Counted from the stretch's first letter, positions 6,891-9,836 are shown. The stretch: DNA of 9,836 nt from a virus (IMGVR_UViG_2563366976_000007), one strand, 5' to 3'. Numbers and translations: made by a program. The notes: generated from the letters alone by a model not told the origin.

Positions 6891-6966
6891 GCATATGAGG
6901 TTTTTGGATGCACTGGCGTTCGTGATCGGGATAATCATTTCATAATTTGCAACATAACTCAATATC

Positions 6967-7016
6967 ATTGCATAAAATGCAATTCTGATTATAATCAGGA
7001 CTGGATAAACATCCAG
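6967..7016 (+). promoter_or_regulatory. Candidate regulated promoter of the head operon: three adjacent perfect palindromes overlapping -35, -10 and +1
   Basis: ATTGCAT-AAA-ATGCAAT (6967-6983), CTGATTATAATCAG (6985-6998) and CTGGAT-AAAC-ATCCAG (7001-7016). Consensus -10 TATAAT (6990-6995) lies inside the middle palindrome; -35-like TTGCAT (6968-6973) with a 16-nt spacer. Confidence 0.5.
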
Positions 7017-7051
7017 TTATGATTTTTTTAGTCGAAGAGGAATTTCTTACT

Positions 7052-7258
7052 ATGGCTGAAGAGAAAAAAGGCGGTGTTTCGGTGTACATAAGCCCCGAAA
7101 TCGTGGAGGTGCTCAAGCAGCGCCACAAAAAAAACTATGAAGCTGGCGTTGCGGCTGGACTGGATCCGCTGATGACGCCGGAGCCGTCGATAGGTTCACT
7201 TGTACGCTCTTATTTACTTGCGGCGCTTGGGATGCATAAAAATTATGGGGGTGAATAA
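7052..7258 (+). CDS. Hypothetical small protein (68 aa), first gene of the head operon
   Basis: ATG 7052 preceded by GAAGAGGAA; alternative in-frame ATG at 7019 has no SD. Its stop overlaps the capsid ATG (TAATG at 7256-7260), so it is translationally coupled to the major capsid gene. Confidence 0.6.
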   Translation: MAEEKKGGVSVYISPEIVEVLKQRHKKNYEAGVAAGLDPLMTPEPSIGSLVRSYLLAALGMHKNYGGE

Positions 7259-8313
7259 TGGCAGGCAAAGCAACGGCACTTAACACTAACCAGCTTTTCA
7301 TGTACCTGAATCGCGGGGATATTGCGGATTTTAAATTCAGCCCTCTGTTTACCACGCTGTTTTTCCCGAACGTGGCGACATTCAGCACGCAAAACATCAT
7401 GCTGGATACCCTGGACATTGAAGAAGTCACCATGTCGGCGTTTTGTTCGCCTATGGTGGGTAGCCAGGTTCAGCGCGATAAAGGGTACGAAACCAGCACA
7501 ATCAAACCTGGCTACATGAAGCCAAAGCACGAAATCGATCCAACGAAAACCATCATGCGCATGGCTGGAGAAGATCCGGCACAGCTTAACGACCCTACCT
7601 ATCGCCGTATGCGCCTGATTACTGGCAACATGCGCCGCCAGATAAACGCCATTAAGGCACGCGTGGAATGGCTGGCGGTGAATGCGGTAACGACCGGAAA
7701 AAACATCATTGAGGGCGAAGGCATAGAACGCTATGAAATCGACTGGAAAATACCGGAAAACTGCATCATAGAGCAGGCCAAGGGTAAAAAATGGTCCGAG
7801 CAGGATAAAGACATGCACGACCCAATCTATGACATCGAGCTTTATGCTGATCAGGCTGGTTGCCCCGCAAACGTCATGATTATGGGCGCTGAGGTATGGC
7901 GAACGTTACGCAGCTTTAAAAAATTCCGTGAGCTGTACGATCTTTCCCGTGGTTCAGAGTCCGCCGCAGAGCTGGCCTGTAAAAACCTGGGCGAAGTGGT
8001 GAGCTTTAAAGGCTATCTGGGCGATATTGCCCTTATCGTCTATTCCGGCAAATACGCCGACAGCGACGGCACAGAAAAATATTTCCTTGAGCCTGATTTG
8101 CTTGTCCTGGGCAACACCAACAATAAAGGGCTGGTGGCCTATGGTGCGATTATGGATCAGGACGCAGTAAGAACGGGGGCAACGCAAAACATGTACTACC
8201 CGAAAAACTGGATTGAGGACGGAGATCCGGCGATTGAGTACGTGCAGACGCACAGCGCACCGCAGCCGGTTCCGGCAGATATTCGCAAATTTGTTACTGT
8301 CAAAATTGCTTAA
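7258..8313 (+). CDS. Major capsid protein, lambda gpE-like
   Basis: 351 aa. Multiple blocks match lambda gpE as recalled: FKFSPLF..LFF (lambda FKFDPLFLRLFF), PGYMKPKHEIDP (PGYVKPKHEVNP), DPTYRRMRLITGNMR (DPAYRRRRIIMQNMR), VSFKGYLGDIALIVYSGKY (VSYKGMYGDVAIVVYSGQY), LVLGNT..GL.AYG.I.D, YPKNW...GDPA.EY...HSAP. Length also matches (gpE 341 aa). Confidence 0.85.
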   Translation: MAGKATALNTNQLFMYLNRGDIADFKFSPLFTTLFFPNVATFSTQNIMLDTLDIEEVTMSAFCSPMVGSQVQRDKGYETSTIKPGYMKPKHEIDPTKTIMRMAGEDPAQLNDPTYRRMRLITGNMRRQINAIKARVEWLAVNAVTTGKNIIEGEGIERYEIDWKIPENCIIEQAKGKKWSEQDKDMHDPIYDIELYADQAGCPANVMIMGAEVWRTLRSFKKFRELYDLSRGSESAAELACKNLGEVVSFKGYLGDIALIVYSGKYADSDGTEKYFLEPDLLVLGNTNNKGLVAYGAIMDQDAVRTGATQNMYYPKNWIEDGDPAIEYVQTHSAPQPVPADIRKFVTVKIA

Positions 8314-8324
8314 CGGGGGATTCT

Positions 8325-8660
8325 ATGGACACTCCATACATTGAGTTATTTGCAGGCAGTCAGCAGGTCGCCACGACGCTGGTACATTTTGCCGCTGATG
8401 CTGGCGTTATCCAGGAATTTACCCCGCTGATGCTGGCGGACAATGGCGAGTTTAAGCCGTGGGATGGTCAGGAATCTGGCAAGGCTGTTTATCTGACTTC
8501 GTACCCCGTGGACACGTCAAAGCAGAAATCAGCACAGTGTTACAAGACGGGGATATTTAATATCGCCGCCGTAAACTGGCCTGAGAGCGCCGACACTGAC
8601 GCGAAAAAATGCGCCGCCTTTGCGGGTTCTGGCGTATCCGTTCAGCCGCTGGCGCGATAA
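8325..8660 (+). CDS. Head decoration protein, lambda gpD-like
   Basis: 111 aa (lambda gpD 110 aa). Motifs TPLMLAD (gpD TPLMLD), WDG, CYKTGIF (FYKSGTF) and WPESADTDAKKCAAFAGS (WPEAASDETKKRTAFAGT). GGGGGA SD 4 nt upstream. Confidence 0.75.
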   Translation: MDTPYIELFAGSQQVATTLVHFAADAGVIQEFTPLMLADNGEFKPWDGQESGKAVYLTSYPVDTSKQKSAQCYKTGIFNIAAVNWPESADTDAKKCAAFAGSGVSVQPLAR

Positions 8661-8672
8661 GCAGGGGAAACG

Positions 8673-9086
8673 ATGGCAACGAATGAAAGCATCATGGCGC
8701 TACCGCTGGCGAGTAAATTTAAAGCAGAAGCGCGGGCAATGGCTGACAGAGGTTTATCAACCTACGAGGCCGTATATCAACTCAACAAACTGGAAGAACA
8801 GGACAAGCCGCGCGCTGATGCGATTATGGCGCTTCATGAACATAACGACTATCAGCCGCTGTTACGTGCAATGGCAAACGTGCCATGTATTAGCGTCGAT
8901 AATGCTCGTGAAATCCTGAACATGACCATAGAGCAGGAGCGCCCAAAGGTTGCACCAGAGCTTACCGCAGCCTTTGAAAACTTTATGGACATGCACAGCC
9001 CGCAAGCCGTATCAGCTGGCATGGCGTACGATGGCAGAAACCAGGGCGATGACGGCGACATCGATCGCATACTGAAAACCATCTGA
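8673..9086 (+). CDS. Hypothetical protein (137 aa) between the decoration gene and cos
   Basis: AGGGGA SD 4 nt before ATG. Acidic, probably helical protein. Function unknown; by position it could be a packaging or head-completion factor. Followed by a terminator and the cos site. Confidence 0.65.
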   Translation: MATNESIMALPLASKFKAEARAMADRGLSTYEAVYQLNKLEEQDKPRADAIMALHEHNDYQPLLRAMANVPCISVDNAREILNMTIEQERPKVAPELTAAFENFMDMHSPQAVSAGMAYDGRNQGDDGDIDRILKTI

Positions 9087-9091
9087 GACAA

Positions 9092-9116
9092 GGCCGGAGA
9101 AATCCGGCTTTTTTTT
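9092..9116 (+). terminator. Rho-independent terminator
   Basis: GCCGGA-GAAA-TCCGGC hairpin followed by T8. Third copy of the same terminator motif. Confidence 0.75.
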
Positions 9117-9148
9117 ACGGGTCCTTTCCGGCATATGGACCCGTTACG

Positions 9149-9160
9149 GGGCGGCGACCT
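9149..9160. other. lambda-type cohesive end site (cosN), GGGCGGCGACCT
   Basis: GTTACGGGGCGGCGACCTCGCGGTTTTTCGCTATTTATGA matches, with one mismatch, the lambda cos junction and left-end sequence as I recall it (…GTTACG|GGGCGGCGACCTCGCGGGTTTTCGCTATTTATGA…); identity is lost after ~35 nt. Lies ~135 nt upstream of the Nu1-like gene, as in lambda. Confidence 0.8.
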
Positions 9161-9255
9161 CGCGGTTTTTCGCTATTTATGAGCCTTTTCAGGGGGGTGG
9201 TGGTGGTTTTGTTGTTTGCTCTATCTTTATGAATAAAAAGGGAAAGATGCAAGCA

Positions 9256-9291
9256 ATACACCAACCTGAAGCAGTAATTAAGTTGGTGTAT
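9256..9291. promoter_or_regulatory. Perfect 10-bp inverted repeat abutting the terS start codon
   Basis: ATACACCAAC (9256-9265) and GTTGGTGTAT (9282-9291) with a 16-nt spacer, ending 3 nt before ATG 9294. Together with a G-rich tract (GGGGGGTGGTGGTGG, ~9192-9206) it occupies the position of cosB in lambda. Confidence 0.4.
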
Positions 9292-9293
9292 TA

Positions 9294-9836
9294 ATGAAAT
9301 CGCACCTGATGAACAAAAAAAACATGGCTAAAAGCTGCCGTGTAAGTGCGACAGCGTTCGACAAGTGGGGAGTAACTCCCGTTGAGCGTAAAGGCCGTGA
9401 GGCGTTTTATGATGTTGCCAGCGTGATAGACAATAGGGTTAACAATGCAATTAGCCAGCTTACAAACGACAAAGGCGATATTGACGATGATGAACTATTA
9501 CGAGTCAGGATCAGATTACTGACAGCGCAGGCGGAGGCGCAGGAGCTTAAAAACGAGCGCGAACGAGGCGACGTTATTGATACAGGGTTTTGCCTGTACG
9601 CGCTTTCAAAGCTGGCGAGCCAGATTTCTTCAATCATGGACAGCATCCCGCTTACTATGCAAAGGAGCTTTCCACACATTACCCCAGCCATGCTGGATGG
9701 GCTTAAAAGGGAAGTGGTTAAAGCCTGTAATGCCAGTGCCAGAGTTGCCGACAACCTCCCACAGATACTGGCTGATTACTTGAAAGAAACAACCGGAAAC
9801 GTACCGGAAAAGTTGCAGCAGAATAAAGATAAGTAA
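9294..9836 (+). CDS. Terminase small subunit, lambda Nu1-like
   Basis: 180 aa (Nu1 181 aa). Strong block similarity to lambda Nu1 as recalled: LLTAQAEAQELKNERERGDVIDTGFCLYALSKLASQISSIMDSIPLTMQRSFP (Nu1 LTRAQADAQELKNARDSAEVVETAFCTFVLSRIAGEIASILDGLPLSVQRRFP) and C-terminal LKREVVKACN...LADYLKE (LKRDIIKAMN...LSEYIEQ). The N-terminal ~50 aa are more diverged. Start could be ATG 9294, 9309 or 9324; none has a clear SD. Stop TAA is at the window end. Confidence 0.85.
   Translation: MKSHLMNKKNMAKSCRVSATAFDKWGVTPVERKGREAFYDVASVIDNRVNNAISQLTNDKGDIDDDELLRVRIRLLTAQAEAQELKNERERGDVIDTGFCLYALSKLASQISSIMDSIPLTMQRSFPHITPAMLDGLKREVVKACNASARVADNLPQILADYLKETTGNVPEKLQQNKDK

Follow-up and report, generated by a model that had tools for sequence, protein, structure and literature searches.

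The 9,836-nucleotide stretch of viral DNA IMGVR_UViG_2563366976_000007 (hereafter the window) ends in an open reading frame (ORF), here called terS, whose product is, with a probability that we put at roughly 70%, a phage satellite's own cos-type small terminase (TerS). The island that carries it is a complete ~11.3-kb phage-inducible chromosomal island (PICI) of Escherichia coli of the EcCICFT073-like kind, and the view that this lone TerS would steer the large terminase (TerL) of a helper phage onto the island's cos site is well supported by comparison with related loci. An earlier note on the same DNA had proposed that the protein diverts helper TerL in this way. The proposal stands because the island is a complete PICI with its attachment (att) sites, because terS occupies the slot of the known packaging gene rppA, because the type of DNA-binding domain is co-inherited with cosB, because terS is subject to purifying selection and because TerL is never adjacent; the argument from protein domains that had accompanied it did not hold in full.

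The terS gene, its cos site and the rppA locus

The ORF runs uninterrupted from an ATG at 9294 to a TAA at 9834–9836, the final triplet of the window. Its product scores 81.1 bits against the Pfam family Phage_Nu1 (PF07471; curated cutoff 30; E = 9e-23; amino acids (aa) 33–148 on profile positions 35–162 of 164), which places it in the lambda-type small terminase family, and aa 1–178 match PHROG 57, ‘terminase small subunit’ (E = 2e-52). Two E. coli chromosomes are 100% identical to window positions 8600–9836 and annotate the ORF under this same name. A direct sequence search of the PDB with the protein returned no terminase match.

The gene lies directly 3′ of a cosQ–cosN–cosB array and begins 145 nt downstream of a lambda-identical cosN (cosN at 9149–9160, ATG at 9294), which is present only once in the whole island. 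The elements of this region, with the parts of the protein, are as follows.

9090–9116, + strand: intrinsic-terminator-like hairpin that closes the upstream capsid-gene block, directly before cosQ
9119–9131, + strand: cosQ-like core GGGTCCTTTCCGG, identical in lambda, N15, PhiR5_1 and EcCICFT073
9149–9160, + strand: cosN GGGCGGCGACCT, 12-nt cohesive-end sequence identical to that of lambda
9196–9217, + strand: R3-like element of cosB, (GGT)4 at bp 48–59 from the cohesive end, then TTTT and GTTGTTT (bp 63–69)
9255–9265, + strand: conserved AATACACCAAC (bp 107–117), a perfect 11-bp inverted repeat with 9282–9292 in the window
9294–9836, + strand: terS of the satellite, a 180-aa small terminase of the Nu1 family that has no TerL beside it
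9294–9461, + strand: N-terminal DNA-binding domain (aa 1–56), of the N15 type and probably a winged helix-turn-helix, by identity, AlphaFold2 topology and profile
9486–9671, + strand: central helical region (aa ~65–126), the counterpart of the Nu1 oligomerization region by AlphaFold2 model and identity
9672–9833, + strand: C-terminal region (aa 127–180), the counterpart of the TerL-binding end of Nu1, including a satellite-specific ~13-aa tail TTGNVPEKLQQNKDK

Whereas phage relatives do have an adjacent TerL, the standard terS–terL operon is absent here. That the window holds no TerL gene, as the earlier note had stated, was borne out by its ORFs and annotation, and none follows just past 9836 either: in the source chromosome, no TerL gene lies downstream of terS before clpS. 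In NZ_AP045810.1 the element sits between cspD/yljB and clpS. The chromosomal order 3′ of terS is a gene for a 93-aa hypothetical protein, ~1.1 kb of repeat-rich non-coding DNA, attR and clpS, and the att sites form a 73-nt imperfect direct repeat located between yljB and clpS, with a distance of 11,282 bp from one copy to the other. The gene order of integrase, alpA-type regulator, primase/replicase, capsid-like gene and terS is that of the PICI core, matching the SatelliteFinder layout (PMC10085698). The att-bounded length falls within the ~10–15 kb of PICIs, and the gene-content annotation includes no tail, lysis, portal or TerL genes.

Within the cos region, the cosQ core is conserved to at least 95% over 46 distinct satellite cos regions. 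We propose the R3-like GGT element as the predicted TerS-binding site. A second conserved cosB block, AATACACC[A/C]AC at bp 107–117, was found in 34 of the 46 regions and also in the independently found loci L102 and L103 (L numbers denote the loci compared), and may be an inverted second R site. A canonical IHF site is lacking between R3 and the bp-107 motif, and terS contains no ACC or GGT repeat that would correspond to the remote inverted R site of N15.

The most direct comparison is provided by EcCICFT073 of strain CFT073, which is syntenic with the island gene for gene. The two are 92–93% identical over a stretch that begins at window position ~5550, takes in the capsid genes, cosQ and cosN, and stops at bp 42 after the start of the cohesive end (~9190), and identity returns to 92% from the first base of the gene after terS. 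Between these edges there is no similarity: the present island has cosB and terS, EcCICFT073 has cosB, rppA (144 aa) and an inverted cos2. The locus thus holds either of two cassettes, terS or rppA, and each comes with a cosB of its own. In blastn searches of 5426 complete E. coli genomes, the terS cassette (at least 80% coverage) occurred in 763 (14%), always as a lone ‘terminase small subunit’, and the exact rppA and cos2 cassette in 53 (1%), a count that divergent rppB or rppC would escape.

The shared slot raises the alternative that TerS acts in the manner of Rpp, forming a hetero-oligomer with helper TerS through the dimer interface of the DNA-binding domain or the central helices. The complex would ignore the phage cosB and recognize that of the island, so that helper TerS would be required and the helper blocked. 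In favor of this, terS stands next to the island cos with a private cosB, in the rppA slot of a 92–93% identical island; no other part of the protein is as similar to phage TerS as its central oligomerization region (46–68%); and lambda TerS and Rpp both dimerize through domains of the DNA-binding and central type (PMC6739421). However, we rejected the protein as an Rpp itself: BLASTP of TerS against RppA of CFT073 gave no alignment at E ≤ 100, the protein has 180 aa, and it possesses a Nu1-type central and C-terminal region. Rpp proteins are 144–153 aa long, combine a lambda-like winged helix-turn-helix with C-terminal dimerization helices of their own, and, lacking a TerL-binding end, need helper TerS (PMC6739421, PMC9026076). 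RppA does align with the lambda Nu1 DNA-binding domain (E = 3e-6). The full-length Nu1-type C-terminal region of TerS, absent from Rpp, is under purifying selection, and the low identity of its DNA-binding domain to the lambda and 21 types (26–30%) makes a heterodimer through that domain less likely. Neither the 137-aa nor the 93-aa neighbor has a PDB, Pfam or NCBIfam match to Rpp. On balance we regard the Rpp-like mode as unlikely and retain the reading of TerS as a small terminase in its own right.

TerS proteins contact cosB with their N-terminus and TerL with their C-terminus (PMC9026076). Overall, the protein is 46.6% identical to N15 gp1 and 34% to lambda Nu1. Residues 1–50 share 57–60% with N15 gp1 vs 30–32% with lambda Nu1 (57% and 40% under a coarser N-terminal split), and the domain is only 26–30% identical to lambda-type and 21-type DNA-binding domains. 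For aa 86–126 the corresponding values are 54% (N15), 46% (lambda) and 66–68% (PhiR5_1/PhiR12_5), and for aa 127–167 they are 29%, 29% and 44–49%, with 63–68% to other PICI TerS proteins. Across 29 satellite homologs the majority fraction is highest in the DNA-binding domain (0.86) and lowest in aa 127–167 (0.61). The AlphaFold2 model has a beta-alpha1-alpha2-hairpin-alpha3 N-terminus (pLDDT 64–68) followed by three long helices, among them aa 65–90 and 97–125. The family profile matches lambda TerS residues 1–98 (6HN7_B) at E = 0.006 and 1J9I only at E = 1.1, and the Foldseek list for the DNA-binding domain consists mostly of MerR-type winged helix-turn-helix domains together with the lambda terminase domain 7LWR_A, all at E ≥ 0.8. 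Judged from these comparisons, the N-terminal domain is of the N15 type and not a degenerate Nu1 domain.

This changes part of what had been expected. According to the earlier note the N-terminal region was much more diverged than the rest; it is no outlier against lambda, and it is the best conserved part against N15 and among satellites. The central and C-terminal parts had been called clearly Nu1-like, which is right for the C-terminal pattern [LI]PxxLxxY[LI]...G and wrong as a statement of high identity, phage TerS C-termini being only 29–49% identical (29% to Nu1 in aa 127–167). Structure prediction and alignment with Nu1, the check suggested at the time, recovered the three-part layout but with an N15-type DNA-binding domain and a divergent TerL-binding end.

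The type of DNA-binding domain and the type of cosB appear to travel together. GGTGGTGGT stands at bp 51–59 from the cohesive-end start in every satellite with an N15-type domain, namely the window, L011, L015–18 (Citrobacter/Enterobacter-type), and L102 and L103 (Kosakonia, Superficieibacter). It is kept despite diverged flanks, and the Kosakonia and Superficieibacter copies even have a different cosN. N15, with the same type of domain, has GTTGTTGTT at these positions, so that the (GGT)3 of the satellites and the (GTT)3 R3 of N15 differ by one base per triplet; the N15 R3 was mapped genetically to bp 48–59, and scrambling bp 54–59 costs 100-fold (PMC4669245). Two marine prophages that combine an N15-type domain with an overlapping TerL have a cosB motif of the GTTGTT type, not GGT, which reads GTTGTTGTTT in Glaciecola and GGTTGTTT in Thalassotalea; neither prophage yielded a cosN-like site from which the register of the motif could be counted. 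The PICIs L009 and L010 pair a phage-21-type domain with a 21-type cosB (ATGTCGGTACTTCT...) that resembles the one of CFT073 prophage 4. Taken together, the sequences indicate that DNA-binding domain and cosB are co-inherited and co-vary in type.

A scan of IMG/VR for cosN, 38 nucleotides of any sequence and GGTGGTGGT returned 83 viral contigs, of which 80 were loaded. In 78 of these a terS of this type begins 145–165 nt after cosN (mostly 145–150), and one more has a partial copy; 77 of the 79 copies with enough sequence are intact and two are frameshifted. No TerL gene lies downstream of terS in the loaded contigs, nor is one adjacent in any satellite copy examined, including the distant homologs of Citrobacter/Enterobacter, Kosakonia and Superficieibacter, which likewise reside in TerL-less satellites. 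The same scan of species-representative genomes gave no match.

Because dN/dS (the ratio of nonsynonymous to synonymous substitution rates) is 0.07–0.35 over aa 1–167 and 77 of 79 copies are intact, the gene is, on this comparative evidence, under purifying selection and functional. Against the 85%-identical copy of L011, dN/dS is 0.07 in the DNA-binding domain and 0.14 in aa 127–167, where dS jumps from ~0.25 to 1.76; such a jump at the 3′ end of terS is the signature of a recombinational swap. These values bear on the alternative that terS is left over from the terminase operon of a lambdoid prophage and is decaying, comparable to nohA/nohD and without current function. Nu1 homologs without a working partner do occur in cryptic prophages (the Nu1 of the host prophage of L012 is annotated nohA), and two terS-bearing islands that were tested were not mobilized (PMC6092414). 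Selection and intactness speak against decay, as do the position in complete att-flanked satellites that is kept across genera, the co-variation with cosB and the presence in 14% of complete E. coli genomes. We therefore hold a remnant to be very improbable, and a working satellite TerS remains the preferred reading.

Two further features of the start region deserve mention. The perfect 11-bp inverted repeat 9255–9265/9282–9292 overlaps the terS ribosome-binding region. Of 77 related complete terS ORFs, 30 encode 184 aa; those of them that were examined, in L052 and L056, start four codons earlier (MGILMKSHL…), as does the 179-aa terS of L011. The upstream ATG of these three is GTT in the window, and translation must begin at 9294.

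Proposed packaging route and candidate helpers

In the route that we propose, a lambdoid helper would induce and replicate the island, and TerS dimers would attach to the R3-like (GGT)n site at bp ~48–59 of the island cosB via their N15-type winged helix-turn-helix. TerS would oligomerize through its central helices and recruit helper TerL through its C-terminal region. Helper TerL would then nick the lambda-identical cosN and fill heads derived from the helper with concatemers of the island; four units of 11.3 kb make ~45 kb. Helper TerS would not be needed, unlike in Rpp-type islands, and damage to the helper, if any, might arise because the two TerS proteins compete for TerL or assemble into mixed oligomers. 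The sequences show directly the layout of the locus, its cassette structure, the co-variation, the purifying selection and the lack of a TerL; we infer the DNA binding, the recruitment of TerL, the identity of the helper and any interference.

The C-terminal module bears on which helper might be used. PICI TerS proteins with different DNA-binding domains share the C-terminal half and the ~13-aa tail at 63–78% mutual identity, and the nearest phage relatives of this half are PhiR5_1 and PhiR12_5, whose TerL N-termini form a type apart from those of lambda/N15 and of 21-like phages. Since, in addition, the cosQ-to-cosN spacer of the island is identical to that of PhiR5_1, the most likely helpers would be lambdoid phages of the PhiR5_1/PhiR12 terminase type, with lambda-type phages as a further possibility. 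We found no literature on PhiR phages. Several C-terminal types exist among the satellites, and in L037 and L044 the same DNA-binding domain and cosB are joined to a lambda/N15-type C-terminus, a combination that fits a modular adaptor. We also considered whether the C-terminal type tracks the TerL type of the embedding prophage; in four helper-embedded cases it does not.

A variable and recombining C-terminal module would also be expected in an arms race, which favors the alternative that the protein is primarily an anti-phage factor that titrates helper TerL or poisons terminase assembly, with island packaging secondary. Interference with the helper is common among PICIs, and lambda and phi80 are both blocked by RppA (PMC6739421). 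The tight linkage of terS to its cognate cos and cosB, however, points to packaging as the selected function, and we consider a primarily anti-phage role improbable next to the redirection of helper TerL.

Several observations weigh against the redirection that we favor, or against parts of the case for it. Fold searches with the full-length and the DNA-binding-domain AlphaFold2 models returned no significant match, and model confidence is moderate. The region expected to contact TerL, aa 127–167, is the least lambda-like of the protein, with 29% identity to lambda and N15 and 44–49% to the nearest phage TerS, so that the original domain argument is partly wrong: the DNA-binding domain is conserved and the TerL-binding end divergent. 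As to expression, the DNA upstream of terS showed no sigma-70-like promoter, and the terminator-like hairpin at 9090–9116 precedes both cos and terS. In the viral contigs the GGT motif was the search criterion and is conserved there by construction; L011, L015–18, L102 and L103 provide the independent support for it. One C-terminal type occurs in satellites embedded in prophages with lambda-type TerL (L023, L056) as well as with PhiR5_1-type TerL (L052). The terS-bearing E. coli islands of IHE3034 and 18098 were not transferred upon induction of the resident prophages (PMC6092414). Finally, the idea is not new, since a redirecting role is the field's standing assumption for PICI terS: the gene is listed as a core component ‘responsible for redirecting the packaging’ (PMC10085698), and a 2018 survey reported terS in some Gram-negative PICIs, including those of E. 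coli (PMC6092414).

Beyond the single island, a broader scheme can be put forward tentatively, at somewhat less than even odds. Satellites of Enterobacteriaceae might share an orthogonal packaging code, composed of an N15-type DNA-binding domain and a (GGT)3 R3 at bp 51–59, combined with exchangeable C-terminal adaptors that would capture the TerL of different lambdoid helpers without helper TerS; terS and rppA would be interchangeable cassettes at one locus.

Many relatives are helper-embedded PICIs that sit within the portal gene (B) or the capsid gene (E) of a lambdoid prophage (L011 in NZ_AP045789.1, L015–L018, L023, L040, L052, L056 and L102). They include pairs of satellite and candidate helper with lambda-type TerL (L023, L040, L056) or PhiR5_1-type TerL (L052). 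In L009, a divergent terS-bearing PICI of the RepA-helicase type (5266–8297) adjoins P2-like baseplate and tail genes and may be integrated beside or within a P2-like prophage. The cos2 of EcCICFT073 (L008, CFT073 ~26275–26372, minus strand) is nearly identical to the cos of PhiR12_5 (L014, ~2030–2150), a likeness that takes in ~90 bp of cosB (…GGGATCCATGTCCGGTTTCTCTGCAAGTTAACCATATGAAAAATATAAAAACATGC…). This suggests that cos2 could let PhiR12-type helpers package EcCICFT073 with their own TerS, which may explain the presence of two cos sites in some PICIs, a point raised in the literature.

Other features of the island

Upstream of the cos region, the window contains the following genes. They were assigned by Pfam, by the RefSeq annotation of the (near-)identical island and by synteny with EcCICFT073.

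1–1239, + strand: integrase
~1649–1858, + strand: AlpA-type regulator
within 1–9086, + strand: DUF4222 and PerC-like genes
~3409–5226, + strand: D5-type primase
5756–6166, + strand: SSB
7258–8313, + strand: gpE-like capsid protein
8325–8660, + strand: gpD-like decoration protein
8673–9086, + strand: 137-aa ORF, directly before cos

The 137-aa ORF is kept directly before cos in both terS-type and rpp-type islands; in some related islands (L011, L015–18) an AlpA-like helix-turn-helix protein takes its position. The PHROG matches of the ORF are PHROG 1999, a family of unknown function, and, at a weak E = 7e-10, the C-terminal part of a PHROG for the lambda-type head protease/scaffold; some RefSeq records name it ‘head-tail connector’. 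A role as scaffold was considered and dropped, BLASTP having found no similarity to the N15 scaffold gp6.

One terminator-like hairpin sequence (GCCGGAGnAATCCGGC and then a run of T) is present in three copies, which follow the PerC-like gene (6457–6478), a 74-aa ORF (6821–6842) and the 137-aa ORF (9093–9114). It looks like repeated regulatory punctuation of a late operon and is possibly an antitermination target. In L001, the apparently non-coding ~1 kb between the 93-aa gene and attR (13580–14611) holds several families of 37–60-nt direct repeats that are 80–98% identical. The window and L001 differ by a net length of 16 bp, and window positions ~1800–2950 have no exact 30-mer match to L001 at the sampled positions except one at ~2101. 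Islands that are otherwise alike have a mosaic regulatory and early region, and island modules are shared patchily across 1820 genomes.

Significance and comparison with known systems

We regard the finding as real, typical and fairly ordinary, with useful new detail. Rpp is the sole characterized packaging mechanism of E. coli PICIs, and terS islands are the commoner in complete E. coli genomes (14% vs 1% for the exact rppA cassette). As only the cassette of cosB with terS or rppA differs, the locus offers a natural, nearly isogenic comparison of two strategies. It further yields a concrete prediction for a recognition code, in which GGT or GTT repeats stand at a set spacing from cosN, for a TerS family whose recognition of DNA is poorly understood, as well as a lead on the origin of Rpp, about which the Rpp authors had asked. 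The locus is relevant, too, to the range of prophages that can mobilize such islands and their cargo. In the literature searched, we found no paper characterizing a cos-type PICI TerS, the exchange of terS and rppA cassettes or the GGT-versus-GTT site.

Satellite small terminases are the textbook means by which Staphylococcus aureus pathogenicity islands (SaPIs) take over the helper motor, worked out only for headful (pac) systems. Reviews describe a complex of PICI TerS and helper TerL for these pac SaPIs. The SaPI TerS(S) (Ubeda 2007, summarized in PMC6739421 and PMC9006064) resembles the present protein as a TerL-less satellite TerS that pairs with helper TerL and has its own packaging site. 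It differs in belonging to an unrelated family, in headful packaging and in being aided by Ppi, which blocks phage TerS, whereas the island TerS is of the lambda cos type; profile and PDB searches of the island's proteins found neither Ppi nor Rpp.

Capsid-forming PICIs (cf-PICIs) of the EcCIEDL933 type are likewise E. coli satellites with capsid-related genes and terS, but have a complete HK97-type head and an HNH–TerS–TerL arrangement. The island has only the gpE-like and gpD-like genes, the 137-aa ORF and terS, and lacks a TerL, portal, protease and HNH of its own, which together with capsid genes define the class in the cf-PICI preprint.

With lambda gpNu1 the protein shares the Pfam family, the three-part layout and a gene position just 3′ of an identical cosN. 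It differs in the subtype of DNA-binding domain, which is set off by two indels, in its 13-aa tail and in the absence of a gpA gene. N15 gp1 (Feiss et al. 2015, PMC4669245) is the closest characterized phage TerS, with an R3-like triplet repeat equally far from cosN. Its simple cosB, as that of the island, has no canonical IHF site and no lambda-type R2/R1. In contrast to the island gene, N15 gene 1 overlaps the TerL gene (gene 2), the C-terminus of gp1 is of the lambda type (80% identical to Nu1 in aa 127–167), and its R3 reads GTTGTTGTT where the island has GGTGGTGGT at bp 51–59.

The closest system by position is that of RppA/B/C in EcCICFT073-type PICIs (Fillol-Salom et al. 2019, PMC6739421), in which the gene also lies directly 3′ of the island cos with a private cosB and presumably serves the same end, the sending of helper terminase to island DNA. 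The means differ. The two proteins have no sequence similarity, and Rpp, at 144–153 aa, needs helper TerS, whereas the island TerS is a full-length Nu1 homolog with an N15-type DNA-binding domain; and the cosB repeat of Rpp islands is the reverse complement, ACC (at bp 55–63 of EcCICFT073, ACCACCACC), against GGT in the terS island.

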